Shown here: piece by piece, positions 22,294 through 48,342 of the stretch
Position numbering within the stretch: position 1 is the first letter of the stretch
How the letters are laid out: each line of letters opens with the position of its first letter
Assembly: GCA_018400015.1 (NCBI GenBank)
Contig: JAGYNB010000001.1
Location: 264,124 to 328,123 of the forward strand
Length of the DNA stretch: 64,000 nucleotides
Direction of reading: 5' to 3'
DNA from: Candidatus Omnitrophota bacterium
Lineage (GTDB): Bacteria > Omnitrophota > Gorgyraeia > Gygaellales > Gygaellaceae
The notes under the pieces: model-generated
Database searches by the model: none
The model's input: the letters and a program-made list of their open reading frames with translations, nothing else
Told to the model about the DNA's origin: nothing
Program-made: the position numbers and the translations under genes

Positions 22294-22371
22294 TAAAATA
22301 TATTGACGAGTGAGGTTTATTGTGCTAAAAATCATCTTTAGCATGGATAATTATCAAGGAGGTGATAATCT

Positions 22372-22566: not shown

Positions 22567-22614
22567 TTAACAAAGCGATTTATTGTAGCCTTTTTATTAT
22601 CAACAGGTTATAAA

Positions 22615-22648
22615 ATAAGGGTAAGCTGTAAGCTTGCCCTTATTTTTT
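22615..22648 (+). terminator. Rho-independent terminator
   Basis: Stem taagggtaagct/agcttgccctta (one G-U wobble), then TTTTTTG. Confidence 0.55.
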
Positions 22649-22690
22649 GTTGATTAGAGTCTATGTTTGAGTTAGAATATTACTCATAAC

Positions 22691-23851
22691 ATGCTACCAT
22701 TAATCATATTAATTCTTTTTTTAAGGCCGTTTATTTCCGAGTTTATAAGCCTGAGATTTGATAGTTTGTTCAGCCTTATTTTAGTTTTAATGATTTCTAT
22801 TTATCTTATCGTCAGCAAGAAGATCAGGAAGACTAAATACGATAAACTCATTTTCTTTTATTTCCTTACCATTATAATTGCCGGTTTTTTCTCGTCAGAT
22901 TTAGTAAAAAGTATCAGCAATATACATAAATATACAACTTCGATTATGATTTTTTATTTAGTTTTCTTGGAAGAAGAAAGAAGACTTTTTATACCCTTTA
23001 TCATAGTCAGTGGTTTTTTCATAAGTATTTATTCGCTGTTTCATTTATTTTTCGTTCCCGGAATGGTGATGGATTATCTTAATAAACAGGGGATTGTTTA
23101 TCCTTTTGCAGAAAATTTTCTTGCAAGGAGAAGGGCTTTTGTCCCTTTTGTTTCTCCCAACCTTCTTGCAGGATATATAGCTATGGTTTTTTCCATTGCT
23201 TCTGGGTTTGTTATGGAGCGTTTGCGTAGGCAAAACAAATCACCAGTTTTGATTTTCTATGTTCTTATTTTATTGACTTTGTTTTTTGTTCTGTTTGCCA
23301 CAAAATCAATAGGGGCTTGGTTATCGTTATTGGCTTCTTTATCGTGCTATGTTTTATTCAGGAAACGAATAAACGGGAAATCTTTGTTTTATATAGCTCT
23401 AATTACTGTTTTTTTGCTGGTTATTTTGTATCTACGTTTTAAAGAATCGAGTGTTATTACTTTTCCATCTTTTTCTTTGCATCAAAGGATAAATTATCTT
23501 TTGGAGAGTTTTAAGGTTATATCGGCCCATCCTTTTATGGGCGTGGGTTTAGGTAATTTTATGATCAAAGAAACACTTTTTTGCCATAATTCTTTTATTC
23601 AGATATGGGCTGAAGCTGGCATTGCCGGGTTTATTTCATGGTTGATTTTAGTGGCTGTATTTATTAGAGAGTCAATTATTGGTTTGAAAATAAAGAAAGA
23701 CTATTTTTTTGACGGTTTATTTATAGCTGGAATGTGTTTTATTTTCCATAATTTTGCAGATTTTAGTTATTTTATTCCGCAGGTTTCGTTTATTTGGTGG
23801 ATGGTTTTAGGTTTTATTCTTGCCGAGAGCAGGTTAAGTACTAATGAGTAA
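22691..23851 (+). CDS. O-antigen ligase/polymerase-family (Wzy_C) polytopic membrane protein
   Basis: 386 aa, ~10-12 TM; Wzy_C-like HNSFIQIWAEAGIAGF motif in the distal periplasmic loop. Confidence 0.6.
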   Translation: MLPLIILILFLRPFISEFISLRFDSLFSLILVLMISIYLIVSKKIRKTKYDKLIFFYFLTIIIAGFFSSDLVKSISNIHKYTTSIMIFYLVFLEEERRLFIPFIIVSGFFISIYSLFHLFFVPGMVMDYLNKQGIVYPFAENFLARRRAFVPFVSPNLLAGYIAMVFSIASGFVMERLRRQNKSPVLIFYVLILLTLFFVLFATKSIGAWLSLLASLSCYVLFRKRINGKSLFYIALITVFLLVILYLRFKESSVITFPSFSLHQRINYLLESFKVISAHPFMGVGLGNFMIKETLFCHNSFIQIWAEAGIAGFISWLILVAVFIRESIIGLKIKKDYFFDGLFIAGMCFIFHNFADFSYFIPQVSFIWWMVLGFILAESRLSTNE

Positions 23852-25148
23852 AAAAAATATTATTATATTGGGCGCCGGTCTTTGCGGCTTAAGCGTTGCC
23901 TGGCACCTTAAAAAGATGGGTATAGCTGCTTGTGTATATGAAAAAGAAGATAAAGTGGGGGGGCTTTGCAAAAGCGAGAGCATAGGGGATTTTGAGTTTG
24001 ATTATGATGGTCATGTTTTACATTTTAGATATCCCTATGTATTTAATCTTGTTCAGAGGTTGTTGAATAACAATATACTTGAATTTAAAAGGAGTTCATG
24101 GTTTTATTTTCATGGTAAATATTTTCCTTATCCGTTTCAGGCAAATCTGTATGGTTTTCCTTTCCGCATAAGCCGGGAATGTCTTCTTGGGTTCATTGAG
24201 GCGCAGAAGAATAAAAAAACAGCAGATAATAAAAACACAAGTTTCTTAGACTGGATAAATCATACGTTCGGTCCGGGTATTGCCAAATATTTTATGATTC
24301 CTTATAACGATAAATTTTGGACAGTTGCTCCAAAAAGATTGACTTATCATTGGTCAAAGCGCGTTATTCCGGTTCCTTCTTTGAGCCAGATTATTGAAGG
24401 CACATTATCGCAGAGCAAGAATGACTTTGGTTACAATATACAGTTTTGGTATCCTAGATCCGGAGGAATTATGCAGCTGCCTTTAGCTTTTGCAAAAGGC
24501 AATAAAAATATTTTCACAGGTGTTTCGGCAGTTCAGATAGATCTTAAAAAGAAAATAGTTTATCTTTCAAACGGCGAAAAAAATAAATTCGATTATTTGA
24601 TTTCTACGATACCTTTGCCAGAGCTTGGTGGTATAATTAAAGATATGCCTTATTCGATAAAAAGGTCTTTGAATAGGCTAAGATGGAACTCCATTTTTAA
24701 CCTGAATTTGGGTTTTGACGATAAACGAAAAGTTAATCGACATTGGATTTATTTTCCTCAGAAAAATATTAGTTTTTTTAGAGTCGGGTTCTATAGCAGT
24801 TTTTCAGCAGGTTCATGCCCTAAGGAAAAAAAAGCTATTTATACAGAAGTGTCTTATTCGCGTTTAAGGCCACTGCGCCGCAAAGGAATAAAAGACAGAA
24901 TAAAGAGAGATTTAATTAAAACTGGAATAATCGCCTCAAAAAATGATATTGTTGTTGAGTTTGAGAATGATATTAAATACGGTTATCCGATTTACGATAA
25001 GAATTATGCACCGGCTAGATTGGCGATATTGGATTACTTAAAGCAGAATAAAATGTTTTCATGCGGCAGATACGGGTCGTGGGCATATATGTCTATGGAG
25101 GATGTTATCCTTGATGGGTATAGGATTGCAAATTCAATTAAGGGATGA
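23844..25148 (+). CDS. FAD/NAD(P)-binding oxidoreductase, UDP-galactopyranose mutase-like (Glf family)
   Basis: 434 aa; N-terminal Rossmann ILGAGLCGLSVA; GGL...DGHVLHF, YNDKFWTV and C-terminal YGSWAYMSMEDVI resemble UGM/protoporphyrinogen-oxidase-like folds. Confidence 0.45.
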   Translation: MSKKNIIILGAGLCGLSVAWHLKKMGIAACVYEKEDKVGGLCKSESIGDFEFDYDGHVLHFRYPYVFNLVQRLLNNNILEFKRSSWFYFHGKYFPYPFQANLYGFPFRISRECLLGFIEAQKNKKTADNKNTSFLDWINHTFGPGIAKYFMIPYNDKFWTVAPKRLTYHWSKRVIPVPSLSQIIEGTLSQSKNDFGYNIQFWYPRSGGIMQLPLAFAKGNKNIFTGVSAVQIDLKKKIVYLSNGEKNKFDYLISTIPLPELGGIIKDMPYSIKRSLNRLRWNSIFNLNLGFDDKRKVNRHWIYFPQKNISFFRVGFYSSFSAGSCPKEKKAIYTEVSYSRLRPLRRKGIKDRIKRDLIKTGIIASKNDIVVEFENDIKYGYPIYDKNYAPARLAILDYLKQNKMFSCGRYGSWAYMSMEDVILDGYRIANSIKG

Positions 25149-25927
25149 ATATTAAAAAGAGAATAATTAGTAATTTCTATAAAAAAGATATATTGCTGGA
25201 TATGTCTTTCAGGCAGATGCGGTTAAAATATGCCGGAGCCAAATTGGGTTTATGGTGGGCTGTTATTTCTCCTTTTATTCTTGCTTTGAGTATTAATTTT
25301 GTTTTTAGACATGCTTTCAAGATCAATATTGATAATTTCGCTTTTTTTGTACTTTCAGGGATTATCCCCTGGATTTATATTACCAATACCTTATCTGAAT
25401 CAACAAGCGTATTAATTAATGATGCTTCATTGGTAAGACAAGGATCAATTCCTATAGAGTTTTTGCCGTTTTCTACCGCTCTTGCCAATTTATTGATTTT
25501 TCTTATAGGTATGTTGTTTTTATTGCCTTTTTTTATCATAATCAAATATAACATAGTATTTATGTTGTGGTTTTTACCATTTGTTATACTGATGCATTTT
25601 ATGTTTTTGACAGGGTTAGCGTTATTTGTATCATTTATAAATGTTTTTGTCAGAGATTTTTCCCATCTATTGAATAGTATTTTTATGGTTTGGTTTTGGG
25701 TGACTCCAGTATTTTATTCGCTGGAAATGATTCCTTCTTCATATAGATGGGTTTGTTTATTAAACCCCGTGACTTATTACGTTATAATGTACAGGGATAT
25801 TTTGTTTTACGGGCAATTACCAGATTTAAATATTATTCTCGCTGGTTTGTTCATCGCGATGGTATCTTTATTGTCTGGGTATAGCACATTTATCAAAAAT
25901 GAGTTTTCAATTTTAAAACGATTATGA
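25145..25927 (+). CDS. wzm: ABC-2 type polysaccharide exporter permease (Wzm/TagG/KpsM-like)
   Basis: 260 aa, 6 TM; ABC-2 family signature region; translationally coupled to the downstream ATPase. Confidence 0.75.
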   Translation: MNIKKRIISNFYKKDILLDMSFRQMRLKYAGAKLGLWWAVISPFILALSINFVFRHAFKINIDNFAFFVLSGIIPWIYITNTLSESTSVLINDASLVRQGSIPIEFLPFSTALANLLIFLIGMLFLLPFFIIIKYNIVFMLWFLPFVILMHFMFLTGLALFVSFINVFVRDFSHLLNSIFMVWFWVTPVFYSLEMIPSSYRWVCLLNPVTYYVIMYRDILFYGQLPDLNIILAGLFIAMVSLLSGYSTFIKNEFSILKRL

Positions 25928-27984
25928 ATGCGCTAAGTTTTAATAAAGTAAGTGAAAAGTACCGTATTAAGTTTGTTGAAAACGGTATAGTTTCTTGGGA
26001 GGAAATATGGGCCTTAAGAGATATAAGTTTTAATTTGAAAAAGGGAGAGGTGTTAGGTTTAATCGGACATAATGGTGCCGGTAAGACTACGTTACTAAAA
26101 TTGATATCAGGAGCAATTGTTCCTGATGAAGGGGTTATTGATGTTGTTGGCAGGATCTCTGTATTGATGGAGCTGGGTATAGGGTTTAATCCGGAGTTTA
26201 CTGGCAGAGAAAATATTATTTTCAATGCAAAAATATATGGATTTAATGAGGAAAGCTTAGCGGTTAAGATTGATAAGATAATCGAATTCGCGGATTTAGG
26301 CAGATTTATAGACTCGCCAATAAAATATTATTCTCAAGGCATGTATATGCGTTTGGCATTTGCCTTGGCTATATTTGTTGATCCGGACATACTTTTAATC
26401 GATGATATTTTAGCCGTGGGTGACGAAGATTCTCACAGAAAGTGTATAAGTAAAATATTTGAATTGAAAGCATCTGGTAAAACCATAGTTTTGGTAACTC
26501 ACGATATAACTATGGTGGAAATGCTTTGCGATAGAGTGATTCTGTTGGAAAAAGGGAGAAAGATTAAAGAGGGATTACCAAAAGAGGTAACCAGATATTA
26601 CCTTCAGGCATGCCAGGCCCGCATTAAGGCAAAGCAGGAAGAAGAGACCAGGCTTCTTCGCCAGCAGCGTACGATAACAAATGGTGACATAAGCCTCTAT
26701 GCTGATGTCGAAAGCAAGGCCTTAAGAATTTACCATAAGGACAAGGAAATAACCAATGGCAACGGCCTGCATAGTTCCTTTTTGATAAATGATATATGGT
26801 ATGAATTCCAGGCAGATTGGGAAATAGAAAAGATTGATGAAGGCGTCTTGAAGGTGGGTATGCATTTTGATAGTTTTATTCAGAATATAATCTTAACGCT
26901 GAATCAGGGCGTGTTGGAAATAAATATTGAATATAGTGTTCTAGAAAATAATAATTTGGACAGTTATCATATTAAGTTTGAGTTTGCCGATAGTTATAAA
27001 ACTTGGTTTTGTCATGACGACAGAGGGAGTTTTGATGTGCAGGATTATATAGATTATGCAGCTCCGGTACGCTTAAAAGATAATAAAGTGAGTAAAATTG
27101 CTTTTATTCATGGAGAAAAAACTGAGATTCCTTCCCTTTTGATCGAAGTTTTATCGGATTTAGACAAGAGAATAGCTTCTCTTTATCGTAGAAATGATTT
27201 ATCGTGCGAGAGGGTTTGTTTTCAGTCTAGTTTTATTGTTCCCCGGATGAAAGGTTTTTCAGAAAATTATAGCGGTGCGTTTCAAGCAAAAATTAATTTT
27301 AAAGATAAAATAGAAGAATCTGAAATTACTGATAATAAATTGGAATTTATATATCAGCTTTCAAATGGCGATCTCGATTTTATCTTCGATCGTGGTAAGG
27401 GGAAAATAATTTATAGAGGCAATGAATTAACGTCTGGATTGGGATTTTATACCACTGTTCGTTCAAAAGGGATGTGGTTTGATTCTTCGCAAGCGTTTTG
27501 GAAGGTTGAAAAAAAGAGCAAGAACAAGATTGAATGTTTTGGCCAGTGGTTTTATCTTCCTATTTTACAGAGATGGAGTATTTGTGTAGGCAAAAAAGGT
27601 ATTGATTTTGATATAAGGATGGATATTCCTGAGGAATGCATAACAGAGCTAAGGCACTCAGCATTGATGTTAAGTAACAATTATAAAAAATGGTTCGTAA
27701 ACGATAATATTTTCGGCGATTTTTTGGAAGAATATCATGAAGAATACGATACTATTCCTTTTCGTTTTTGGAGTGGCAATACCGCTGTGCTTGCTGCTTT
27801 ATCTGCAAAAAAGAACTTTCCTCAGGTATTTTTTAAAAGCAAGAATTGTCCATTGGCAATAGTGGAAAATAGTGAATCTATTTATTGGGCAAGGAGATTT
27901 CAGTTTCAGTCTAAAACGGATAATAAGGTAAGCTTGGGCAATAAAGGCATATTTTTTGCAGGCAAAATAACGATCAATGATTAG
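25924..27984 (+). CDS. wzt: Polysaccharide ABC exporter ATPase (Wzt/TagH-like) with ~430-aa C-terminal extension carrying two copies of a putative glycan-binding domain
   Basis: 686 aa; Walker A GHNGAGKTT, signature YSQGM, Walker B LLIDD within the first ~250 aa. The C-terminal extension has two related ~120-aa modules: W.EFQADWEIEK...YKTWF and WFDSSQAFWKVEK...WFYLPILQRWSI...YKKWF. Confidence 0.8.
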   Translation: MNALSFNKVSEKYRIKFVENGIVSWEEIWALRDISFNLKKGEVLGLIGHNGAGKTTLLKLISGAIVPDEGVIDVVGRISVLMELGIGFNPEFTGRENIIFNAKIYGFNEESLAVKIDKIIEFADLGRFIDSPIKYYSQGMYMRLAFALAIFVDPDILLIDDILAVGDEDSHRKCISKIFELKASGKTIVLVTHDITMVEMLCDRVILLEKGRKIKEGLPKEVTRYYLQACQARIKAKQEEETRLLRQQRTITNGDISLYADVESKALRIYHKDKEITNGNGLHSSFLINDIWYEFQADWEIEKIDEGVLKVGMHFDSFIQNIILTLNQGVLEINIEYSVLENNNLDSYHIKFEFADSYKTWFCHDDRGSFDVQDYIDYAAPVRLKDNKVSKIAFIHGEKTEIPSLLIEVLSDLDKRIASLYRRNDLSCERVCFQSSFIVPRMKGFSENYSGAFQAKINFKDKIEESEITDNKLEFIYQLSNGDLDFIFDRGKGKIIYRGNELTSGLGFYTTVRSKGMWFDSSQAFWKVEKKSKNKIECFGQWFYLPILQRWSICVGKKGIDFDIRMDIPEECITELRHSALMLSNNYKKWFVNDNIFGDFLEEYHEEYDTIPFRFWSGNTAVLAALSAKKNFPQVFFKSKNCPLAIVENSESIYWARRFQFQSKTDNKVSLGNKGIFFAGKITIND

Positions 27985-30346
27985 GCATATTTTAAAAAGA
28001 ATTAAAGCGCATTTTAAAAAAGGCGGTTTGTTATATGTCGGATTACGTGTTGTTAAATATCTTAAATTTCTAATTATATCTTTGATTATAAAAATAAAGC
28101 GTGATAAAAAAAAGTCAGTTACCTTAAAGGAAACAGTTTTATCATCAGATAATCTTAAGATTGTAGTTTTAAATTCAGGAATAAACTTTTTATGGAAGGA
28201 TGTTCTTTTTACTGTTCATCCTGGTGTGAATTTAGGTTTTAATATATTGGGGTTATGGAATGATTCTGCCAGGGCCGATTGGCATATCGTAGAGAAGGCA
28301 ACTAATTACTTAAAAATAAAAGTTTATTTCTGGGAATTGCCTTTGAACCAAACATGGGAAATTAAGCTTTTAAGTAAAAACAGGGTAAAAATAGATATTT
28401 GGCTTGAGGTTGAGGAATGGTTGCATATTGATGAAATTCGGCTTTTGTGTCTTGCCGAAGGAAAATATAAATGTTGGATTAATAATTTTGAAATAAATAA
28501 TTTCCAGAAATTTGGCAATGCCTGGCGGGATATATGTATGAGTTCAGAGGTTTCTTCTTTGGTGGGCTTGAGGTTTCCTAAAATCAACGATATTCCTTCG
28601 TTTACTATGGAAACAGACGAAAAAGACACCTTTGCCATTATTCAGAATTCTCCCCAGAATATGTCAGCGCATGCAGTTGGTTTTAGAAAGATTATCCCAA
28701 CCGGAAAAAGAGATTATGCTCCCGGCACATATGGACTTTTCTCAGTTTATTTTAATTTTTTTAGTTCTGATCAGCCTCTTGATAATAAAATCGAGCTTTT
28801 AAGAAAAATAGATCTTAAAAAAATGTCAGCCGTTAATAATAGAGCGAGCAGTACTTATAATCAAGGGATTTTGTTGGTTAATCTTCCATGGCAGGAGGAA
28901 GGCCAATTCGGCGTGAGAGCAGGTTCACGCTGGCCACATATAAAAGATTATTACGAAGGCGATTATACTCCTTTTCCTTTTTTTCTGGCTTACTCAGTCG
29001 CATTATTAAGAAAACACGGTTTTAAATCTATGATAATTGATGCTCTGGCAGAGAGACTTAACGAAAACATATTTCTAGAGAAAGTTTCTAGATTGGGTGC
29101 TGATATTTTAGTCGCAGAGGTTTCAACGCCTTCATTTAAAAACGACATTTCGCTTTTGAAGAAAATGTCGGGGAAGGGAATGAAAATTGTAGTTTGCGGT
29201 CCGCATATTGAGATTCATGAAAGAGATTTCTTGAGTAAGCATCCTTTTATAGATTATGTTTTGTTCGGGGAATACGAGTTTTCTTTACTTGATTTGGTTA
29301 CTGCCATATTTGAAAATAAGCCGCTTTGCGATGTCAAAGGTTTAATCTACCGTGAAGGCGACACTATTATTAAAAACCCTCCAAGAGAAGCTTTTGACAT
29401 AAACTTGCTGCCTTGGCCTTCCCGGGAAGATCTACCTATGGAAAAGTATTGGGATTTGCCTGGTAATATCCCTTATCCATCTGTACAGATGGCTGCTTCT
29501 AGAGGCTGTCCTTTTGGCTGTAATTTTTGTCTTTGGCCCCAGGTAATGTATTTGGGTAATCATTACAGGGTAAGAGATGTTAAGGATACAATAGATGAAA
29601 TGGAGTATCTTGTAAGGGAAATGGGGTTTAAGTCTGTTTACTTTGATGACGATACTTTCAATATAGGCAAAACAAGAATGCTGGATTTTTGCAACGAAAT
29701 TAAAAAACGCGGTTTAAATGATATTCCTTGGGCGATTATGGCAAGAGCAGATTTAATGGATGAAGAGATATTGAACAATATGGAATCTGCGGGACTTTGG
29801 GCTGTTAAGTATGGAGTGGAAAGCCCAAACAGTAAGCTCATTAAGACAATAAATAAAGATATGGGTATCGATAAGACAACGAGAAATATAAAGATTACAC
29901 AGGGGTTGGGGATTAAAACTCATCTTACTTTTTGTTTTGGAGCAGATGGTGAAACAAAAGATACGGTTCAAGAAACTATTAATTATGCCTTGAAGCTTAA
30001 TCCGGAATCAGTACAGTTTTCCATTCTTACTCCTTTTCCCGGAACAAAATTGTACGAAAAACTGGACAAGGAAGGAAGAATTTTAACTAAAGATTGGTTT
30101 AAATATGACGGTCATTATCAATGCGTTTTTCGTCATGATAACTTTACCCCTGAGGAGTTGGTTGCTATTAAGAAACGCGCTTACGGTATCTGGCTGGATC
30201 ATACAAGAAGAAGAAGGGGCGTAAAAGGAGACATAGACAGGTTCAATAAATATCTAAGAAAACATGGATTAGCCAAGGCAATTAGCAAGACCTTATCTTA
30301 TTTTGAATTTGTTATGTTTAAAAGAAAAGAGTTTCTGAATGGATAA
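27977..30346 (+). CDS. B12-binding radical SAM protein with N-terminal TM helix and Wzt-CTD-like domain
   Basis: 789 aa; TM LIISLIIKI; residues ~55-190 carry LWNDSARADWHIVEK...FWELPLNQTWEI...YKCWI, homologous to the Wzt C-terminal modules; B12-binding region; ASRGCPFGCNFC rSAM cluster. Confidence 0.75.
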   Translation: MIRHILKRIKAHFKKGGLLYVGLRVVKYLKFLIISLIIKIKRDKKKSVTLKETVLSSDNLKIVVLNSGINFLWKDVLFTVHPGVNLGFNILGLWNDSARADWHIVEKATNYLKIKVYFWELPLNQTWEIKLLSKNRVKIDIWLEVEEWLHIDEIRLLCLAEGKYKCWINNFEINNFQKFGNAWRDICMSSEVSSLVGLRFPKINDIPSFTMETDEKDTFAIIQNSPQNMSAHAVGFRKIIPTGKRDYAPGTYGLFSVYFNFFSSDQPLDNKIELLRKIDLKKMSAVNNRASSTYNQGILLVNLPWQEEGQFGVRAGSRWPHIKDYYEGDYTPFPFFLAYSVALLRKHGFKSMIIDALAERLNENIFLEKVSRLGADILVAEVSTPSFKNDISLLKKMSGKGMKIVVCGPHIEIHERDFLSKHPFIDYVLFGEYEFSLLDLVTAIFENKPLCDVKGLIYREGDTIIKNPPREAFDINLLPWPSREDLPMEKYWDLPGNIPYPSVQMAASRGCPFGCNFCLWPQVMYLGNHYRVRDVKDTIDEMEYLVREMGFKSVYFDDDTFNIGKTRMLDFCNEIKKRGLNDIPWAIMARADLMDEEILNNMESAGLWAVKYGVESPNSKLIKTINKDMGIDKTTRNIKITQGLGIKTHLTFCFGADGETKDTVQETINYALKLNPESVQFSILTPFPGTKLYEKLDKEGRILTKDWFKYDGHYQCVFRHDNFTPEELVAIKKRAYGIWLDHTRRRRGVKGDIDRFNKYLRKHGLAKAISKTLSYFEFVMFKRKEFLNG

Positions 30347-33300
30347 GCTGTTAGTAAAAGGTATTAATAGCGAAAAGCATGCCTTTGCAGGTCCTAAAAT
30401 AGTACAGATTGATCTTACGGGTAAATGTAATAATAGTTGTATAGGCTGCTGGGTGCACTCTCCTTATATAAAAAACCCACCTAGAGACAAGAATGCAGTG
30501 CTTTCATTTGAAAGAATATCGAGATTAATAGATAATTTGGCACAGTTGGGTACGCGTGAGATTTTTTTATCAGGGGCAGGTGAACCTTTTTTGCATCCTG
30601 AAGTTTTCAGGATTATCGAGGCAATAAAAGCAAAAGGTTTAAAACTTAATATAATTACCAATTTTAGTTTGATCAATAGAAGAAATGCAGAGAAGTTGGT
30701 TGATTTGAAAGTAGATATGATTACAGCAAGCATTTGGGGAGGTGATGAGGACACCTATATAAAAACTCACCCAGGTAAATCCGCAAATGATTTTGCGGCA
30801 ATCAGAAACAATATTAAAACACTGTCGCAAATAAAGAATAAAAATAATGTTTTTTTCCCTCATGTTAAGATTTTTAATGTTATTTGCAATTTGAATTGCA
30901 ACAATATACATAGTATGATCGATTTTGCTTTGGAGGCCGAGGCAGAATCTATTGAATTTCAAATCATGGATATCGTCGAAGGCTCTACTGATTTTTTAAG
31001 GTTGTCATCAGATGATATCAATATTATTAAACAGCAATTTTGTACACTTTTTGAACGAAATGATCTGTTTTTTAGAGATATAAATGAATATAATGCAGAA
31101 AATAGCAGATCTCAAGAATTATTTGAATTTTCAGGAAGGTTTATCAAGATACCCGTTGGTTTTCGTTTAGAAGAGAAGATTGAATGTACCGAAGGTAAGA
31201 ATATTTGTTTGCGTTCCTTAATCTGTCCCTCCGGATTTACCAGTTTGCCTTCTGAATCCAATCCGTTAGTCAAAGAGGACTGCAATAAGATTATTTTTAA
31301 GCGCAGCAAAGAGGAGTGTATGAACTGCAGGCATTTTAAAACAGATTGTCCTGTAAATAGAGATTTCGATATTCCCTTTAAGTATCTTCAGGTTCTTGGA
31401 CATTATCCGTTTATGAGAAGAATTAATTCTGCGGATATATATAAAAAAGAATATGAGCGTGATTTTATTGATAAATTACCTTGTTACATCGGATGGATAT
31501 ATTCTCGAGTCATATCTACGGGAGACGTTATTCCATGTTGCAAAGCGATTAATAAACCGTTGGGTAATATCAATAAAGAATATTTCAAAGAGATATGGGA
31601 CTCACAAGATTACCAAGAATTCCGGTTTAATGCCAAAAATCTGTCAAAAGCTGATGGTTATTTTAATGAAATTGATTGTTTTAAATCATGTGATAACGTG
31701 GGAATGAATATTCAGATTATTGATAATTTATCCAAAATTAATCTGGAAAAAGATCATGGTTGTAAGCTCGAAGCTGTTTATAATGGAGCAAAGTTGTATA
31801 AAAAACTGCCTCAAGCAGAGCAACAAATAATAGTAATGGCAAATTCATTCCATAACGGAAATCTTAATAAATACACCGACGAATTCGGAAAAGGCGTAGT
31901 AATCGATGGCGGATTTAAATATGGTTATGCTGAGTATGAGGTAGACTTTACTAATTCTGGGATTTATGAATTATGGTTATGTTATGCCAGCAATGAGAAA
32001 AGAGGGTTAAAGATATATATTGATGGACAGTTAGTTAAGGATAAAGCAGCTGATTATATAACCGGTGGTTGGGATAAAAGTCATTTAATTTGGAGTAAAG
32101 AACTAAAGATTTCTAACATAAAAGGCAAGCATTATATAAAGTTTGCATCGAATAATGTTTTTCCCCATATACATAGTTTTGTTTTTTTATCGAATGTAAA
32201 AAGAGAAGATTCTGATTTGATTGAATGCGGTTGTGAACAGATTTATGATGGAAAATTTCCATTCGGTGTTTTACGTGAAAAAATTAAGCGAAATGGAATA
32301 ATAATTGCATTCCGGTCTTTAGCTAAGTATATCTTGTCAGGAAAGTTTTTGAATAGCTATCTTGATATTTTGGGCATTTTTAATGGCAGTTATGCATTCA
32401 AAGGCCCTTTTCATGTGCAAATTGATCTTACTTATCGGTGTAACAATGATTGTATTGGTTGTTGGTGTAACTCACCGCTTCTTGGAGAAAAACGGATAAC
32501 AAACGAGAAGAAAAACGAAACGTTGCCTTATCCGTTAGTGATTGATTTGTTGGATGAGATTTCAGCAATGGGTGTTAAGGAAATTTATTTTTCAGGCGGA
32601 GGAGAGCCTTTTATGCATCCGAATATATTCGAAATCTTAGAATATGCAAAATCAAAGAAGCTATTATGTTATATTAATACCAATTTTACTCTTTTGGACA
32701 AAGAGAAAATTAACAAACTTATTGAGTTGGGCATAGATCATTTGACTGTGAGTACTTGGGCGGCAACCGCACAGACTTATGCAAAAACGCATCCTAACAA
32801 GAACGAAGATACTTTTAATACTATTCGCGAGAACTTAAAGTTTCTTAATAGTGTTAAAAAAACAAAACCTCATATAAAACTTTATAATGTTATATTTAAT
32901 TATAATTATCATGAGTTAAAAGAGATGATCTTATTTGCAAAGGATACGGGTTGTGAATCGGTAGAGTTTACTGTTCTTGATACGATTCCCGGGAAAACGG
33001 ATAGACTGCTTTTAAATAAGGAGCAGATCAAGGAACTCGAAGAATCTGTGATCCAAATTAAGGCGGGTATAGACAGCAAAGGTTTATATGAGGGAGTGTT
33101 GTTGTTTCGGTTTGAATCGTTTTTAAGAAGGATTTCCTCGCGTGAGGATTTATCTAATGCAACGTACGATAGGAATATTATCGATAAAATTCCCTGTTAT
33201 ATCGGATGGTGTTTTTCACGCATTATGCCAAATGGCGATGTTAATGCATGTTTAAAGGCGCATCGCATACCCAGCGGTAATTTATTTCAGCAGAACTTCA

Positions 33301-38002: not shown

Positions 38003-38021
38003 GCAAAAAAATAATAAAATT

Positions 38022-40571: not shown

Positions 40572-40676
40572 TAATGTCGGTTATTTTGTTATGCTGGAGA
40601 GAATTTTTTTAAAAAATAAAATTGATTGGTTATTCGGTAGCGGCATAGTGGATTTGAAAAACAAAAGGTAAAGATT

Positions 40677-41840
40677 ATGCGTATTTTGATGGTTCATCCC
40701 CATGATATTCATTCATCAGTTGAACCTTGGACCAGAAGAGTCAAAAGTTTAGCGGAAGAGTTCGCGAAAAGCGGGCATGAAGTAAGATTGGTTTATTTTC
40801 CTTTAAAGAAAAGAGATCCAACTAACAGTAGTAACAATCTATATGAAGAGTTTGTGTTTAATCGTAATTGTTCTTTCACTAATTTTATTAAAAATACAGT
40901 TAAGTTAATAAAATTGGCTGAGTGGTCTGATGTTATGCATTTTCAAAAATGTCATCATTACGCCTCAATCCCTACAGTCATAGCAGCTTATATAAAAAAG
41001 AAGCCGTTACATTACGATTGGGATGATTGGGAAGAAATGATTTGGTATGAATCTTGCGGGAGAGGATTACATTCTTTGTTTATAGGATTTTCTTTTAGGA
41101 TTTTGGAAAGGTTTTTGCCTGTATTTGCTGATAGTGTATCTGTAGCAAGCCATCATTTAAGAACGCTTGCTTTGAAATATGGAGTAAATGAAGATAGGAT
41201 TTGTCTTGCTCCGGTAGGGGTAGATTCTAAAGAGTTTAATCCCTCTGTTGCATCGGGAAATATTAAAGATAACTATAATATTAAAGGAAATTTAGTGCTC
41301 TATGTTGGTCAATTACATGGTGCACAGTATATTGAGTTACTTATAAAAGCGGCAAAATCTGTACTGGAGCAAAGAAAAGATACCACTTTTATGATAGTGG
41401 GTGAAGGAGTTATGGAGAGAGATTTAAGGATCCTGACCAGGGATTTGGGCATAGATGACAAGGTAATATTTACAGGATCAGTTTCACATGGCCAAATTCC
41501 GGCGTATATAAACGCAGCGGATGTGTGTGTTGCTCCTTTTAGGGATACTTTGGTTACTCGTTGTAAAAGCCCTTTGAAGATAGTGGAATATTGTTCATGC
41601 GCCAAGGCGATAGTTGCAAGCAATGTAGGGGAAGTGAGAAGGATGCTGGGGGGAGTTGCCGTATTGGTTGAGCCGGGTAATTTCCAAGCTTTATCAGAAG
41701 GAATCTTGCGACTTTTGAATGAGAAGCAGTTAAGAGCTAATCTGGGAAAATTTGCACGTCTTCGCGTAGAGAAGCATTATAATTGGGCAAATACAGCAGG
41801 GGCAATATTTTCTTTATACCAAAGAATCTGCATAAAATAA
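40677..41840 (+). CDS. Glycosyltransferase, family 4 (GT-B)
   Basis: 387 aa; C-terminal EX7E-type motif region LKIVEYCSCAKAIVASNVGEV. Confidence 0.75.
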   Translation: MRILMVHPHDIHSSVEPWTRRVKSLAEEFAKSGHEVRLVYFPLKKRDPTNSSNNLYEEFVFNRNCSFTNFIKNTVKLIKLAEWSDVMHFQKCHHYASIPTVIAAYIKKKPLHYDWDDWEEMIWYESCGRGLHSLFIGFSFRILERFLPVFADSVSVASHHLRTLALKYGVNEDRICLAPVGVDSKEFNPSVASGNIKDNYNIKGNLVLYVGQLHGAQYIELLIKAAKSVLEQRKDTTFMIVGEGVMERDLRILTRDLGIDDKVIFTGSVSHGQIPAYINAADVCVAPFRDTLVTRCKSPLKIVEYCSCAKAIVASNVGEVRRMLGGVAVLVEPGNFQALSEGILRLLNEKQLRANLGKFARLRVEKHYNWANTAGAIFSLYQRICIK

Positions 41841-41850
41841 AATATTCATT

Positions 41851-42957
41851 GTGAAAATCTTATTTATAACAAGAGAAGGATATAAAATGGCGGGAGCCAG
41901 AATTCGTTGTTATAATTTTTCAAGAAATCTTATTGCCCGCGGCATTGATGCGCAGGTTGTGTCTTTTAAGGATGGTTTTGGCGCGTTTGACGGTGCAGAA
42001 GAATCAAAAATGACATTGAATGACAAAATAAGAGCAAATTTAAAGGTTTTAAATTATATAAGGCAGCAGAAGGACATAATCTTATTGATTCAGCGGTTTA
42101 ATTATCATTCTTTTGCACCTTTCTTGATGCATATTTTTGCAAAAACGAAAACTATTTTTGATCTTGATGATTGGGAAATGGATGAAAACCCAAGATATCA
42201 TTTTGGTTTTTATCCATCATCAAAAGCCCATTTTTTTTCAAAGGTTATCGCAAAAAGAAGTAATTTTTGTATAGGGGCCAGTAGGTTTTTGCAGGATTTT
42301 TTAAGCCTTTCAAACAAAAAAAGTTATTATCTTCCATCAGGCGTAGACACGGAAAAGTTTTATCCTGTTTATGATAATTTGAATAACCGGGAGTTTGTTT
42401 TTGCTTGGATAGGGACATTGAATAGAATGGAGTATATAGAGAATTTAGAGTCGCTTTTTCGTTGTTTTCAACAGGTAAGAAGAGTTTATCCATTTGTTTA
42501 TCTTGATATTATCGGTTCTGGTATATATGAGGTTGAATTAAAGGAAATAGTAAGGCTTATTGGAGATTCCCATATAAGGTTAAAAGGGTGGATTGATCCC
42601 GATAAGGTTAATAGTTATTTGGCATCGGTTAATGTTGCTGTTATGCCAATGGTGAGATCAAATAATTTTAATTTTTCCAAAAGCCCTGTTAAGCTTTTTG
42701 AGTATATGTCAACAGGAAAACCCGTTGTTGCAAGCAGTATAGGAGAAGCAAGCAAAATAATCCAAGACGGATCAAACGGTTTTTTGGCAAAAACAGAGAA
42801 AGAATTTACAGAAAAGATGCTTATTTTGGTCAATGACCCTGAGTTGTGTATAAAGCTGGGCAAAGAAGCTGTCAGAACAATTGAACAAAATTATTCATTA
42901 AATATCTTGGGTGATAAGTTGTATAACATGATTTTAGAGAATATACAATGTTCTTGA
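41851..42957 (+). CDS. Glycosyltransferase, family 4 (GT-B)
   Basis: 368 aa; KLFEYMSTGKPVVASSIGEA GT4 motif. Confidence 0.7.
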   Translation: MKILFITREGYKMAGARIRCYNFSRNLIARGIDAQVVSFKDGFGAFDGAEESKMTLNDKIRANLKVLNYIRQQKDIILLIQRFNYHSFAPFLMHIFAKTKTIFDLDDWEMDENPRYHFGFYPSSKAHFFSKVIAKRSNFCIGASRFLQDFLSLSNKKSYYLPSGVDTEKFYPVYDNLNNREFVFAWIGTLNRMEYIENLESLFRCFQQVRRVYPFVYLDIIGSGIYEVELKEIVRLIGDSHIRLKGWIDPDKVNSYLASVNVAVMPMVRSNNFNFSKSPVKLFEYMSTGKPVVASSIGEASKIIQDGSNGFLAKTEKEFTEKMLILVNDPELCIKLGKEAVRTIEQNYSLNILGDKLYNMILENIQCS

Positions 42958-43805
42958 GCATAGTTATTTTAACATTTAACAGCGGAGATTTTATAAAAAG
43001 ATGCCTTGATTCTTTGTTCTCTAATGTCTTAGAAGATACAGAAGTTATAGTTGTGGATAATGCTTCGACTGACAAGACAAAGGAGATTCTTAAATTATAT
43101 TCGTCTAAGTTACGATTTATCGCGAACGAAAGCAATCTTGGTTCCTGCGCAGGCAGAAATATTGCTATTGATAATTCTTCTGGTGATTGGATATTATTTT
43201 TGGACTGTGATATAGTCTTGCATAAAGATTTTATTGAGCAGATTATTCTTAAAATTAAATCTGTTTCAGGCCGGGTTGGTGCGGTTCAGCCGTTGATTCT
43301 TAAATCTGATTCAGAAACTATTTATTCTTGTGGAATTCGTCTTACTTTTCTTAGAAGGTTTTTTGATATTGGCAGGGATAAATCCGACAGAAGAAAATTT
43401 GCCTGTGAGAGAAGTATTTTTGGAGCATGTTCCGCAGCATCCGTTTATAGACGTAATATGATCGAGCAGATAAAAGATCAGTATGGTTATTTTGATGAGC
43501 GTTTTTTCTTTTTAGTAGAAGATGTAGATTTGTCGTGGCGCGCCAGAAAAAAAGGCTGGGAGACATTATTTTTTCCTGGTGCAAAATGTATCCATGCCGG
43601 CAACAGCTCATATTTTTCAAAACACTTAAGGCAGTATCTCAGTTTCCGCAATAGATACTATATGATATTAAAGAATGAAAATAAATATTTCCTTCTGCTA
43701 AAATCATTATTTTATATTTTTTACGATGTCCCCAGATTGGTTTTTTTATTATTTACTAATCCGTATATTTATCAGCGAAAGCTGAAATTATCCCAGCAGT
43801 ATTAA
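42948..43805 (+). CDS. Glycosyltransferase, family 2 (GT-A)
   Basis: 285 aa; SIVILTFNSG...VVDNASTD...LDCD DxD-type GT2 motifs. Confidence 0.75.
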   Translation: MFLSIVILTFNSGDFIKRCLDSLFSNVLEDTEVIVVDNASTDKTKEILKLYSSKLRFIANESNLGSCAGRNIAIDNSSGDWILFLDCDIVLHKDFIEQIILKIKSVSGRVGAVQPLILKSDSETIYSCGIRLTFLRRFFDIGRDKSDRRKFACERSIFGACSAASVYRRNMIEQIKDQYGYFDERFFFLVEDVDLSWRARKKGWETLFFPGAKCIHAGNSSYFSKHLRQYLSFRNRYYMILKNENKYFLLLKSLFYIFYDVPRLVFLLFTNPYIYQRKLKLSQQY

Positions 43806-43871
43806 CTTTCTTACCAGGTATGAGTTTATTCAGGGATAGCAGACTGATTATTTTTTTGCAAGTTAGAATAG

Positions 43872-44834
43872 ATGACTATAAATAAATTGATAAATAATAT
43901 GAAAATATGTTGTGTAATTGTGGCTTATAAAAATAAGCAATCATTGTTTAAATGCGTTTCTTGTGTTTTTGAACAATCGCTGGCAGTCAGCGATATAGTT
44001 ATTGTAAATAATCACGGCACGTTAGAGGATAATTTTAATTCAAGGATACCGATAACTATTATTAATAATTCAAACAATCTATTCTATGGAGTTTCGTTAA
44101 ATATTGCCATAAATAAGGTTCGGGCAGATTTTTATATTTGTTTAAATGACGACGCTTATATAGATAATAATTTTGTTAAAGAAGCAATCAAAGGGTTCGA
44201 CATTGGGGAAGATATTGGCATGGTCTGCGGTAAAGTTTTATCTTCTGATGGGATGAGAATAGATTCTGCTGGGTTATTTCTAGGATTAGCCAGGCAGCCT
44301 GTTGATAGAGGTCATCAAAAAGCCACAGCCGCAAGTTTTAATAATCAAAATTATGTTTTTGGTGTTCCCGGGGCTGTTGCTTTTTACAGAAAAACCATGT
44401 TGGATAGTGTTCGTATAGGAAGTGATTATTTTGATTCGGAGTATAAAATGTTTTATGAAGATATAGATCTGTGCTGGCGCGCCAATAGGTTAGGATGGCG
44501 TGCCTATTATGTTCCTTCGGCGCTTGCTTATCATCAAAGAGGGTTGAGTGCAAGAACTAACGATGGAGTTGGTAGAAGATTTGGCCGAAGGTTTTTAAAT
44601 AAAGAACTACATTTTGAATTGATCAAAAATAGATATCTTACGATAATAAAGAATGAAACCATTGCTGGTTTCTTAAGCCATATGTTGTTTATTATTGTTT
44701 ATGAGGCTGTTATTTGGTTGTATATTATTATTTTTAATCCTCTTATCGCCATGAATTTCATTCGGTTATTTTCGCTTAAGAAGGCTTTTAGAAAAAGGAA
44801 GCTGATAAATAATTTAGTTCTTAAAAAAAGTTAA
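43872..44834 (+). CDS. Glycosyltransferase, family 2 (GT-A)
   Basis: 320 aa; CCVIVAYKN...LNDDAY; shares GVPGAVAFYRK / EDIDLCWRA motifs with the preceding GT2 (paralogs). Confidence 0.7.
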   Translation: MTINKLINNMKICCVIVAYKNKQSLFKCVSCVFEQSLAVSDIVIVNNHGTLEDNFNSRIPITIINNSNNLFYGVSLNIAINKVRADFYICLNDDAYIDNNFVKEAIKGFDIGEDIGMVCGKVLSSDGMRIDSAGLFLGLARQPVDRGHQKATAASFNNQNYVFGVPGAVAFYRKTMLDSVRIGSDYFDSEYKMFYEDIDLCWRANRLGWRAYYVPSALAYHQRGLSARTNDGVGRRFGRRFLNKELHFELIKNRYLTIIKNETIAGFLSHMLFIIVYEAVIWLYIIIFNPLIAMNFIRLFSLKKAFRKRKLINNLVLKKS

Positions 44835-44858
44835 TTATATAATTTTATATTTAAATAC

Positions 44859-45989
44859 ATGAAGCGTATAAAAATACTTTTTATTATAACTTATCTTGAA
44901 CTTGGCGGTGCACAGAAGCAGTTGTTGTCGATATTGCAGTCGTTAGATAAAAAGCGTTATGATATTCATTTGTTTGCCGGTTCCTGCGGGTACCTTTTGG
45001 ATAAATTTAAAAATTTACAAGGCGTCACTTTAAAGCTATCTTCACATCTTAGGAGAGAAATAAGTTTATCTTGTGATCTAGCTTCCTTTCTGGAGATCTA
45101 TCATTATGTTAAGGTAAATGGATTCGATATAGTCCATTTGCACTCTCCCAAAGCTTCCTTTTTGGGGCGTTGGGCTGCATATTTAGCAGGCGCAAAAAAT
45201 ATTATATACACAGTGCATGGGTGGCCATTCCATGCTTTTATGAATCCTTTTTTGTTTTCTCTATATTGGATTATTGAGTTTAGCAGCGCCAGGATCACCA
45301 AGAAAATCATTGTAGTTTCCAAGGCAGATCTTAAGACCGGAATTACAAAATTCATAGCTGGGGAAAAAAAACTCGAGCTTATTTATTACGGTATTGATAT
45401 AGATAAATTCCATTCTATATCTTGCCATAGAAGAAATAGCTTTATAGACAATAAAACTATTATGGTCGTGTCTTCTTTTAAGAAACAAAAAGGCCTTAAT
45501 GATTTTCTGGTAGTTGTGAGTTTGCTTTTAAGGCAATTACCCGATACAAAGTTTATTCTTATTGGTAAAGGTCCTTTGTTTTCTGCTGTAAAAGATAAGT
45601 TAAAAAAAGAAAGTCTTGAAGGGTCTGTGGAGATGGTTGGCTGGCAGGAAAATATAGATATTTATTATGAAAAAGCCTCGCTATTATTATTAACATCCTT
45701 ATGGGAAGGTCTACCTGTTTGTTTGATTGAAGCGGTGGTTGCTGGTTTGCCTGTTGTATGCACTGATACAGGAGGGGTTAAGGATTTAATAAAAAATGCT
45801 GATAATGGAATAATAGTGCAGGTAAAGGATATCCTGGGCTTAAAAAATGCATGTTTAGACATGCTAGAAAACTATTCTGATTGGTATAAGAAAATAGTAA
45901 AATACAGATTTGATATTGATGTTTCTATCTGGAGCGATGATAGAATGTTAAGGCAACTGCAGGAAATTTATAGCGATATAGTTGAATAA
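44859..45989 (+). CDS. Glycosyltransferase, family 4 (GT-B)
   Basis: 376 aa; SLWEGLPVCLIEAVVAGLPVVCTDTGG GT4 motif. Confidence 0.75.
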   Translation: MKRIKILFIITYLELGGAQKQLLSILQSLDKKRYDIHLFAGSCGYLLDKFKNLQGVTLKLSSHLRREISLSCDLASFLEIYHYVKVNGFDIVHLHSPKASFLGRWAAYLAGAKNIIYTVHGWPFHAFMNPFLFSLYWIIEFSSARITKKIIVVSKADLKTGITKFIAGEKKLELIYYGIDIDKFHSISCHRRNSFIDNKTIMVVSSFKKQKGLNDFLVVVSLLLRQLPDTKFILIGKGPLFSAVKDKLKKESLEGSVEMVGWQENIDIYYEKASLLLLTSLWEGLPVCLIEAVVAGLPVVCTDTGGVKDLIKNADNGIIVQVKDILGLKNACLDMLENYSDWYKKIVKYRFDIDVSIWSDDRMLRQLQEIYSDIVE

Positions 45990-46017
45990 ATAACCTATTG
46001 TGTTAGAATAAATTACG

Positions 46018-47010
46018 ATGAAAATCGCATTATTTTTTATATTCAGTCTTGTTTTGAATGCAATATTGTTGAGTTTTGCTAATAAATTCGGTATAAAGTT
46101 TTCCTTATTCGGCAGGGAAAGGAAGATACCATTTACTGGAGGGCTAGCTATATTTTTAGGGTTTATTATATCTTTTGTTTGTATTGTTTTTTTTACTGAT
46201 TTAGTTTTTTCTTTTCAAGTCGTATGGTTCTTAGTTTTTTCTCTATTGATAATTATTGTTGAAACTGTAGATGATTTAAAGGATCTTTCTCTTAAGGCGA
46301 GGATATTTATACAGGTTTTAATAGTTTTTTTGTTTTTACTATTCTCAAAAAGGATTCAGATATATTTTCTCCCTGGTTGGTTAAATTATCTTGTTTCATT
46401 CATTTGGATAATAGGTATAACCAATGCTTTTAATCTTTTGGACATAGAAGATGGTTTATGCGGGGGAGTTAGTATTATAGTAGCAGCTTCATTATTAGTT
46501 ATTGCTTTGTTGAAAGTAGATTTGTTGATAATTTATTTGCTTTTGAGTCTGTTGCCTTCATTAATCGTATTTATATTTTTTAATTTCCCGCCAGCTAGGA
46601 TATTTATGGGCAATGCAGGAAGTCATTTCTTGGGTTTTTCTATAGCCGTTTTTTGCATTCAACAAGATTATGCCTTACCAAGCAATAAGATTTCTTTGCT
46701 GATTCCTTTTTTATTCTTAGTTGCGCCGATAATGGATACAATATATCTTGTTATCTCAAGAATAAGAAATAAAATACATCCTTTAAGAAAAAGCCCCGAT
46801 CATATATTCTTGCATCTTTTATCTAAAGGGTACTCTAAAAGGAAAATGTTGTTTTTGGTTTATTCTGTGACTTTACTTTGGTGTATGAGTGCAATAACGC
46901 TTTTTGAAGGGTTTAATTATATTTTTATCGTTTTGTTATTTCTTGCTGTTTTCTTAAGTGTGGTTGTTTATTTTATGGCTATTGGTGTAAAAGTTAATAA
47001 CAGTAGTTAA
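46018..47010 (+). CDS. wecA: Polyprenyl-phosphate HexNAc-1-phosphate transferase (WecA/MraY family), initiating glycosyltransferase
   Basis: 330 aa polytopic; ITNAFNLLDIEDGL (NAxNxxDGxDGL) signature. Confidence 0.75.
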   Translation: MKIALFFIFSLVLNAILLSFANKFGIKFSLFGRERKIPFTGGLAIFLGFIISFVCIVFFTDLVFSFQVVWFLVFSLLIIIVETVDDLKDLSLKARIFIQVLIVFLFLLFSKRIQIYFLPGWLNYLVSFIWIIGITNAFNLLDIEDGLCGGVSIIVAASLLVIALLKVDLLIIYLLLSLLPSLIVFIFFNFPPARIFMGNAGSHFLGFSIAVFCIQQDYALPSNKISLLIPFLFLVAPIMDTIYLVISRIRNKIHPLRKSPDHIFLHLLSKGYSKRKMLFLVYSVTLLWCMSAITLFEGFNYIFIVLLFLAVFLSVVVYFMAIGVKVNNSS

Positions 47011-48321: not shown

Positions 48322-48342
48322 AAATTTAAAGTCGCTCTTGAC

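Follow-up and report, generated by a model that had tools for sequence, protein, structure and literature searches.

Why should a glycan locus carry a long block of radical S-adenosylmethionine (rSAM) genes between its exporter and its glycosyltransferases? The locus that raises this question lies at positions 22691-47010 of a 64,000-nucleotide stretch of contig JAGYNB010000001.1 from a Candidatus Omnitrophota bacterium (the window in what follows; all positions refer to it, and all features are on the plus strand unless stated otherwise). There, the listing of open reading frames (ORFs) has 15 long plus-strand ORFs in an unbroken run, g1 to g15, one fewer than the 16 consecutive genes of the original prediction, which had been made from the letters alone. 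By the domain calls for its proteins, obtained from Pfam and NCBIfam scans, the locus is of the ABC-transporter-dependent glycan type; it encodes a WecA-type initiator, GT4 and GT2 glycosyltransferases, and a Wzy_C protein. Its distinctive part is the rSAM block g5-g9, which spans 12.6 kb and whose ties with exporter and glycosyltransferases consist of shared domains, gene order, and fusions. The original prediction had given the block a bare label and had missed these ties. The answer that we favor, and hold to be fairly likely, is that the locus makes an ABC-transporter-dependent glycan whose lipid-linked chain would be tailored by radical chemistry at the membrane before its gated export.

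The exporter and the rSAM block share a domain. This recurring segment of ~215 amino acids (aa), first spotted by reading the translations and referred to here as GM, occurs twice in tandem in the Wzt ATPase g4 (686 aa; 25924-27984), behind the nucleotide-binding domain at aa 1-245. Copy 1 covers aa 249-470 (26668-27333) and copy 2 covers aa 475-686 (27346-27981). Single copies are found in g5 (aa ~49-290; 28121-28846) and at the C-terminus of g7 (aa 249-463; 35395-36039). Comparison by blastp inside the locus gave 75 bits for the Wzt C-terminus against g7, 55 bits for g5 against g7, and 36 bits for Wzt against g5, and a local hidden Markov model (HMM) of GM, made from a MAFFT alignment, matched Wzt, g5 and g7 only among the window proteins. 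Four aromatic residues are invariant in the alignment (W52, W77, Y113 and W116 in the numbering of Wzt copy 2). We found no Pfam or NCBIfam match for GM even at permissive thresholds (E<=5 in Pfam for the Wzt C-terminus), and the GM profile had no significant match in the PDB. The structural model of the domain, for Wzt copy 2, is a galactose-mutarotase-like beta-supersandwich, and a fold search with the GM model returned mutarotase-like supersandwiches and not the Wzt_C jelly roll. Likewise, the ~430-aa C-terminal extension of Wzt has no match to PF14524, the Wzt_C jelly roll. GM on Wzt is a new class of Wzt extension, set apart from Wzt_C. The modeled fold suggests that GM is a carbohydrate-binding-type domain, with a glycan rather than a protein as its presumed ligand.

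The block itself contains eight rSAM domains, namely three B12-type and four SPASM/twitch-type active modules and the pseudo-enzyme g7. The first of its genes, g5 (789 aa; 27977-30346), encodes a B12-binding rSAM protein with a CPFGCNFC motif at aa 511, whose N-terminal ~300 aa lie outside the family models and comprise a hydrophobic helix (aa 18-38) followed by GM. Its nearest solved structure is AprD4 (6fd2, E 4e-21). Its best NCBIfam match is HpnJ (226 bits against a cutoff of 578, model positions 14-429 of 472), and a ladderane model was also matched; identification of g5 as HpnJ was rejected, given the score under the cutoff and the lack of hopanoid side-chain genes in the locus. The second gene, g6 (1440 aa; 30339-34661), encodes three fused rSAM-SPASM/twitch modules (three matches each to PF04055 and PF13186) with CxxxCxxC motifs at aa 30, 701 and 1105. 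These modules are 39-40% identical to one another and resemble the solved structures of BtrN, MoaA, PqqE and BlsE only weakly. Embedded in g6 at aa ~485-624 (31791-32210) is a probable beta-jelly-roll module resembling carbohydrate-binding modules (CBMs) of families CBM6 and CBM35.

The remaining three proteins of the block complete this set. In g7 (463 aa; 34651-36042), a pseudo-rSAM half barrel precedes the C-terminal GM domain and resembles the second half of the g8 barrel only (33% identity to g8 aa 248-399). Since g7 has neither a CxxxCxxC motif nor a B12 domain, we classify it as a pseudo-enzyme; its sequence suggests that it is probably a non-catalytic adaptor, and the g7-type family is conserved in relatives. 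A second B12-binding rSAM protein, g8 (36032-38002), has CIGGCVYC at aa 229 and a degenerate extra Rossmann-like tail. The last, g9 (849 aa; 38022-40571), joins a BtrN-like rSAM-twitch module at aa 1-300 (PF04055 and PF13186; E 9e-13 against BtrN 4m7s) to a B12-rSAM module at aa 305-770 with its motif at aa 530, and ends in a tail-anchor helix at aa 812-839. The hydrophobic helices at the N-terminus of g5 and the C-terminus of g9 are kept in L002, the related locus described below. The domain pair of class B enzymes, PF02310 and PF04055, is present in g5, g8 and the C-terminal module of g9. Against TIGR03975, a C-methyltransferase model for peptides that are ribosomally synthesized and then post-translationally modified (RiPPs) with a cutoff of 282 bits, g8 scores 110 bits and g9 scores 151 bits. 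The SPASM/twitch C-terminal domains have only 4-5 conserved Cys residues each across 33 orthologues, suggesting that the SPASM-type modules are probably twitch-like, with one auxiliary cluster.

The association of GM, Wzt and rSAM modules is not peculiar to this window. When 1.84 billion cluster representatives were searched in full with HMMER, 299 proteins matched at E<=1e-30; a word-index profile search with the GM alignment had returned two fragments only. We classified protein architectures locally for the best 148 HMMER matches. Among these, ~80 consist of a Wzt nucleotide-binding domain and 2-8 GM copies, ~44 consist of GM only, with no ATPase domain detected and some of them possibly fragments, ~10 are g7-like combinations of a pseudo-rSAM domain with GM, and ~14 have active rSAM modules (GM with a B12-rSAM or rSAM-SPASM module, or several modules without GM). 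In two Wzt-type proteins, P0029 and P0158, Wzt, GM repeats and an rSAM-SPASM module are fused directly. For g6, ~70 relatives match near full length at 43-59% identity, and nearly all of the named ones are from metagenome-assembled genomes (MAGs) labeled 'Candidatus Omnitrophica/Omnitrophota'.

Gene order is conserved as well. In all eight of the GM-type Wzt contexts examined, rSAM genes lie in the same co-directional locus. One counterpart, L002, comes from a MAG labeled Planctomycetia and reads Wzt (four GM)-g5-g6-g7-g8-g9, a gap, and then GT4-GT4-GT2, at 33-57% identity. The order Wzm-Wzt-g5-g6 recurs in L005, L007, L008 and L010, and the rSAM and glycosyltransferase content downstream of it varies. 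In the metagenome contig L005, the order is WecA, UDP-galactopyranose mutase (UGM), Wzm-Wzt-g5-g6 and GT2; L010 (GCA_042570265.1) has WecA-UGM-Wzm-Wzt-g5-g6 followed by genes for a methyltransferase and a g9-like protein; L007 (GCA_022705945.1) has Wzm-Wzt-g5-g6, split g9-like genes and GT4-GT4-GT2; and L008 (GCA_043815185.1) has Wzm-Wzt-g5-g6-g9 and GT4-GT4-GT2. Two further metagenome contigs vary the theme. L003 has WecA-UGM-Wzm adjoining a fusion of Wzt, five GM copies and rSAM, and in L011 B12-rSAM genes flank UGM, WecA, Wzy_C, Wzm and Wzt (two GM). This operon type recurs in genomes mostly labeled Omnitrophota.

Fusions extend the links to the glycosyltransferases. Both L006 and L009 have a GT4 fused to a homologue of g6 module 2, and L006 also has a carbamoyltransferase fused to one; the L006 homologues are 40-51% identical to the module. 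In L004, counterparts of g5, one g6 module and g8 form a single polypeptide, and a neighboring GT4 (49% identical to g10) bears the CBM-like module. L006 and L009 also encode giant multi-module rSAM proteins of 2,074-2,331 aa, one of which, in L006, comprises one SPASM-type and four B12-type modules. These giant proteins adjoin the GT4-rSAM and carbamoyltransferase-rSAM fusions and sugar epimerase/dehydratase genes. A Wallbacteria MAG among these loci has a 762-aa Wzy_C protein beside giant rSAM genes.

These observations can be arranged into a pathway. The WecA-type g15 would prime polyprenyl phosphate at the membrane's cytoplasmic face, and three GT4s and two GT2s would extend the chain, with a furanose donor from the UGM-like g2. 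Membrane-tethered g5, g6, g8 and g9, together with the pseudo-enzyme g7, would then rewrite sugars of the still lipid-linked, cytoplasmic glycan, capturing their substrate through GM (g5 and g7) and through the CBM6/35-like module (g6). Finally, Wzm/Wzt would export the chain, and g1 would ligate it to its final acceptor. We place the tailoring at the membrane because the enzymes are anchored and have carbohydrate-binding-type modules, one of which is shared with the exporter, and because they are fused elsewhere to the exporter or to glycosyltransferases. With this GM domain present twice on Wzt as well, the tailoring and export steps would recognize one and the same glycan or be coupled physically. 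In support, the nearest solved structures, AprD4 and BtrN, are those of sugar-modifying rSAM enzymes, as is BlsE, to which the match is weaker; these enzymes act in aminoglycoside and nucleoside antibiotic pathways. In this pathway GM would bind glycan and the polymer would be the substrate. By analogy with relatives, the candidate reactions would be C-methylation for the B12-type modules and, for the others, dehydrogenation, dehydration/deoxygenation or decarboxylation. A more specific proposal, which we advance tentatively, is post-assembly radical tailoring of a lipid-linked polysaccharide as a glycan counterpart of RiPP maturation, in which rSAM enzymes bearing recognition modules would install C-methyl groups, keto or deoxy functions or cross-links, and GM-Wzt would check or capture the product.

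Several points weigh against tailoring of the lipid-linked chain. The support is computational for every component. All NCBIfam scores of the rSAM proteins fall below the family cutoffs, so no named reaction can be assigned, and it is for peptide maturation that SPASM/twitch enzymes are best known. In the GM model, confidence is only moderate over the C-terminal third, with a predicted local distance difference test (pLDDT) score of 50-70. The total of 3867 HMMER matches at E<=1e-3 is inflated, the 474-position profile having also spanned the pseudo-rSAM half. Finally, a RiPP or ladderane cluster is the label that genome-mining tools would probably give to loci of this type, and both kinds of cluster call have been made in Omnitrophota (PMC9902471).

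The rSAM enzymes might instead act on monomers, converting nucleotide sugars into unusual (branched, deoxy or keto) donors, with GM merely scaffolding a metabolon at the transporter. AprD4, BtrN and BlsE, the nearest solved relatives, use small sugar substrates, and known rare O-antigen sugars are made at the nucleotide-sugar level. The fold of GM also has non-glycan members, so protein-protein contacts are possible. However, soluble nucleotide-sugar enzymes have no obvious need for membrane anchors or for a CBM6/35-like module, nor any evident need for a domain that is shared with the exporter ATPase in 2-8 tandem copies. The rSAM fusions to Wzt and GT4 are a better fit for a growing lipid-linked chain, and there is no nucleotidyltransferase or dehydratase embedded in the rSAM block. 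On balance, we regard action on monomers as unlikely.

It also seems improbable to us that this is an ordinary O-antigen or capsule locus in which the rSAM enzymes make only a non-reducing terminal cap that is read by the CBM-bearing Wzt, in the manner of WbdD of E. coli O9a. Seven active rSAM modules far exceed the needs of one cap, the tandem arrays of 2-8 GM copies suggest multivalent binding along a repeat and not at one end, and the presence of GM on the enzymes themselves is hard to explain if GM reads the finished product alone. What speaks for a cap is that Pfam revealed no WbdD-like kinase/methyltransferase or other conventional terminator in the locus, that the C-terminal binding domain of Wzt is always paired with a terminating modification in the O9a paradigm (PMC9445017, PMC3482155), and that B12-rSAM enzymes are most often methyltransferases (PMC12931638).

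A RiPP-like or lipid (ladderane- or hopanoid-like) cluster inside the glycan locus, its product exported by the ABC-2 transporter, would draw on the dominance of SPASM and B12-rSAM enzymes in RiPP maturation, on the matches of g8 and g9 to TIGR03975 and of g5 to HpnJ and the ladderane model, on a g6 orthologue annotated 'AlbA', on squalene/phytoene synthase genes 13 kb downstream, and on the cluster calls in Omnitrophota (PMC9902471). We consider it very improbable, and the least likely of the explanations, because a precursor gene would not fit in the locus (the largest gap, of 105 nt, holds only a 12-codon ORF, and the small ORFs in L002, L007 and L008 are not conserved) and because all fusion partners (Wzt, GT4, carbamoyltransferase) are glycan enzymes, while the accessory modules have carbohydrate-binding-type folds, the supporting NCBIfam scores are all below cutoff, and the locus has no Pfam match of the RiPP recognition element (RRE) type, no protease and no lipid-synthesis gene.

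The conventional genes of the locus are consistent with ABC-transporter-dependent assembly and export, by analogy with E. coli O9a, Klebsiella O2a and mycobacterial galactan (PMC9445017). At its head, g1 (22691-23851) encodes a polytopic membrane protein of the Wzy_C family (PF04932, 46.2 bits against a gathering score of 31.7, model positions 2-149 of 149) with ~10 hydrophobic segments and the loop SAHPFMGVGLGNF, in which a His stands ahead of GVGLGNF. No solved WaaL aligned with g1 at E<=1, and a sequence search of the PDB gave no significant relative. Its sequence suggests that g1 is probably a WaaL/PglL-type ligase acting after export, ligase and polymerase not being separable by sequence. 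Because a WaaL-type ligase is expected in a Wzm/Wzt pathway, a Wzy_C protein beside Wzm/Wzt is no paradox.

The next gene, g2 (23844-25148), is an amine-oxidase-fold flavoprotein by Pfam. Eukaryote-type UGMs (T. cruzi 4dsg, E 1e-44, aa 5-416) align with it along the full length, and it keeps the motifs GHV, PYPFQ, WxYFP, FxR, GYP and GRxGSWxY; the bacterial Glf model TIGR00031 matches at its Rossmann end only (37 bits against a cutoff of 304). A generic amine oxidase was rejected on the strength of this full-length UGM match. The residue at the position of the substrate arginine R176 of T. cruzi UGM (RPYNFK) is Ile. From its sequence, g2 presumably supplies a furanose donor, and its substrate may differ from UDP-Galp. 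The exporter is formed by g3 (25145-25927), a Wzm ABC-2 permease (PF01061, 61 bits; galactan Wzm model, 54 bits and below cutoff), and g4, the Wzt ATPase described above (PF00005, 80.8 bits; TagH/Wzt-type NCBIfam matches), whose genes lie side by side with a 4-nt overlap.

Downstream of the rSAM block, g10 (40677-41840; 57% identical to its L002 counterpart), g11 (41851-42957) and g14 (44859-45989) are GT4 glycosyltransferases, and g12 (42948-43805) and g13 (43872-44834) are GT2 glycosyltransferases. The two GT2s are paralogous (26% identity over 296 aa, E 2e-31). The motifs GVPGAVAFYRK and EDIDLCWRA, which had been said to be shared by the pair, are present in g13 (aa 164 and 196) but not in exact form in g12, where GACSAASVYRR and EDVDLSWRA stand as degenerate counterparts. 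The last gene, g15 (46018-47010), encodes a polyprenyl-phosphate N-acetylhexosamine (HexNAc)-1-phosphate transferase of the WecA/MraY superfamily (PF00953, 105 bits); against the WecA model TIGR02380 it scores 89.7 bits, below the cutoff of 326. There is no MOP/Wzx-type Pfam match among the 15 locus proteins, and a Wzy-dependent pathway was rejected, with no Wzx and with Wzm/Wzt present.

The domain calls thus uphold the conventional components named in the original prediction: the Wzy_C/O-antigen-ligase-family protein, Wzm/Wzt export, the two GT2s and three GT4s with their paralogous GT2 pair, the WecA-type initiator, and the Glf-like flavoenzyme, for which the evidence is stronger than Pfam and NCBIfam alone suggest. 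A further proposal was that an upstream manC at 19732 supplies GDP-mannose. The gene is indeed ManC, but its link to the locus is unproven; an RlmN-like gene, a 64-aa ORF and a terminator-like hairpin with a 16-bp stem lie between the two. The 64-aa ORF (22372-22566), between the RlmN-like gene and g1, has a strong Shine-Dalgarno sequence, AAGGAGG, and its product, which includes FELYEKRGFTSGNEWSDWFEAEKLV, looks DUF2934-like by eye only.

The layout of the locus is compact. Successive junctions from g1 to g15 measure -8, -4, -4, -8, -8, -11, -11, +19, +105, +10, -10, +66, +24 and +28 nt, with a stop/start overlap at each junction from g1 through g8, and no intergenic space in 22691-47010 could house a further gene. 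The overlapping or near-abutting boundaries that had been described are therefore as stated, and 40572-40676 is the only gap above 100 nt. The locus had also been called strictly co-directional. All of its genes are on the plus strand, but so is every long ORF from 540 to 55869, so strand alone cannot delimit it. Its GC content is slightly lower (0.337) than that of the flanks (0.370 and 0.355). The 5' boundary is marked by the terminator-like hairpin at 22612-22646 (16-bp stem and T run), which closes the upstream unit. This hairpin, 3' of the 64-aa ORF, is the strongest of its kind in the region. A promoter-like sequence, TTGATT-17-TAGAAT, lies just 5' of g1 at 22650-22678 and, with 9 of 12 positions matching, is weak evidence. 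Its -10 element ends 12 nt before the ATG of g1 at 22691, where we saw no recognizable Shine-Dalgarno sequence; the g1 mRNA might have almost no leader, or g1 might in fact start further downstream.

At the 3' end, there is no terminator-like site behind g15, and a CitMHS-family transporter gene begins 42 nt beyond it at 47053. Given this spacing and the lack of a terminator, the two genes may be co-transcribed. The next strong promoter-like site is at 48338 (11 of 12, with an extended TG). Two CitMHS/ArsB-family transporter paralogues flank the locus, one at 17871-19253, ~3.4 kb upstream, and one at 47053-48321, directly downstream. An Rfam scan of the whole window found no RNA family.

The 105-nt gap at 40572-40676 had been proposed to hold an internal promoter separating two sub-operons. 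A promoter search of the gap gave only weak promoter-like matches (9 of 12). Over 21000-40999, their number does not exceed that in shuffled sequence (80 found, 81 expected), so an internal promoter is not demonstrable by a scan of this kind. No terminator was detected in the gap either. At the equivalent junction, L002 has 625 nt including a 128-aa secreted ORF, L007 has a GDSL gene, and L008 has a 122-aa ORF; no element is conserved between the gap and its L002 counterpart. Because related loci differ here, we interpret the junction as a seam where an export/tailoring module meets a glycosyltransferase module. The division into two parts accordingly stands as a variable seam, and the internal promoter is unsupported. 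The 128-aa ORF of L002 (15949-16335) has a signal-peptide-like N-terminus and no counterpart in the window.

Taken whole, the window is unusually rich in Fe-S and rSAM genes. A B12-binding rSAM gene at 540-2108, with a GNAT acetyltransferase and a polysaccharide deacetylase after it (to 3541), could represent another small group for glycan modification, 20 kb upstream of the locus. Between 11282 and 15854 there is a run of ORFs of ~120-130 aa, of which the one scanned (11671-12060) is Nitro_FeMo-Co/NifX-like, followed by two MinD/ParA-ferredoxin ATPases, a small rSAM protein and an ARMT1-like phosphatase. Downstream of the locus, behind the promoter-like site at 48338, the genes for an Rrf2 regulator, SufC, SufBD, an NAD-binding oxidoreductase, desulfoferrodoxin, a VIT1 iron transporter, an FMN reductase and rubrerythrin (48338-54668) form an Fe-S assembly/oxidative-stress block typical of an anaerobe. 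From ~55900 to 63400, gene orientation is mixed and the AT skew falls from ~0 to -0.15. This region has a glutamine synthetase gene on the minus strand (55944-57497) and a gene for an amine-oxidase-fold flavoprotein that is no paralogue of g2 (57652-59091), adjoining a minus-strand squalene/phytoene synthase gene (59933-60814). The genes at 57652-60814 resemble an hpnCDE-type squalene module.

Known substrates of rSAM enzymes are peptides, lipids, cofactors, nucleic acids and also small sugar antibiotics; in the literature searched, no member is known to use a polysaccharide. If tailoring of a lipid-linked chain is correct, the superfamily would gain polysaccharides as a substrate class, and GM would be a new, widespread and unmodeled glycan-recognition domain on O-antigen-type exporters, with the 299 representatives noted above. 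It would also imply unusual surface chemistry in Omnitrophota, a poorly known and mostly uncultured group in which cell-cell contact depends on the envelope. Genome-mining tools may be mislabeling such loci as RiPP or ladderane clusters. The GM domains, the CBM-like module and the single rSAM modules are separable, testable proteins. We found no such rSAM-Wzt glycan system in the literature searched, in which subscription journals were thinly covered, so this is no proof of novelty. A 2026 review of B12-dependent rSAM enzymes mentions no polysaccharide substrate (PMC12931638), and a 2026 Omnitrophota preprint reports no more than a module of co-occurring Pfam domains (GT1, phosphoglucomutase and radical SAM, in long proteins) along with variable 'polysaccharide cassettes' (10.64898/2026.06.07.730766).

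Among known systems, WzmWzt with a carbohydrate-binding domain, as in E. coli O9a and Aquifex aeolicus (PMC9445017), shares with this locus an ABC-2 permease and an ATPase with a non-catalytic C-terminal extension, as well as WecA-type initiation and cytoplasmic assembly on a polyprenyl carrier. Here, however, the extension consists of two tandem ~215-aa mutarotase-fold domains (2-8 in relatives) instead of a jelly roll, and, unlike in O9a, the same domain is also found on the tailoring enzymes and there is no WbdD-type terminator. The Klebsiella O2a D-galactan I and mycobacterial galactan systems (Glf, WecA, GlfT1/2, Wzm-Wzt) likewise have a UGM-family gene beside Wzm/Wzt, a WecA-type initiator and GT2s. 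The NCBIfam matches of the present proteins to galactan Wzm, galactan Wzt and GlfT1 are weak and all far below cutoff, the UGM here is of the eukaryotic type with its R176 equivalent replaced, and the galactan systems have neither rSAM enzymes nor such a Wzt extension.

The proposed chemistry has its closest counterparts in AprD4, BtrN, GenK and BlsE, which direct radical reactions at carbohydrate C-H bonds with the help of B12 or twitch accessory domains. Whereas those enzymes are soluble, single-module and active on small molecules, the modules described here are multiply fused, membrane-anchored, equipped with carbohydrate-binding-type domains, and encoded inside a polysaccharide export operon. 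In its overall logic, the system would resemble RiPP maturation, where several rSAM enzymes bearing recognition domains rewrite a polymer, whether or not its synthesis is templated, that a dedicated ABC transporter exports; it differs in having no precursor peptide or RRE and, in their place, carbohydrate-binding folds and glycosyltransferase partners. HpnJ, which forms the hopanoid cyclitol ether from a glucosamine head group, is also a B12-type rSAM enzyme, and it rearranges a sugar that is attached to a membrane lipid; relative to HpnJ, g5 has an additional transmembrane helix and a GM domain.

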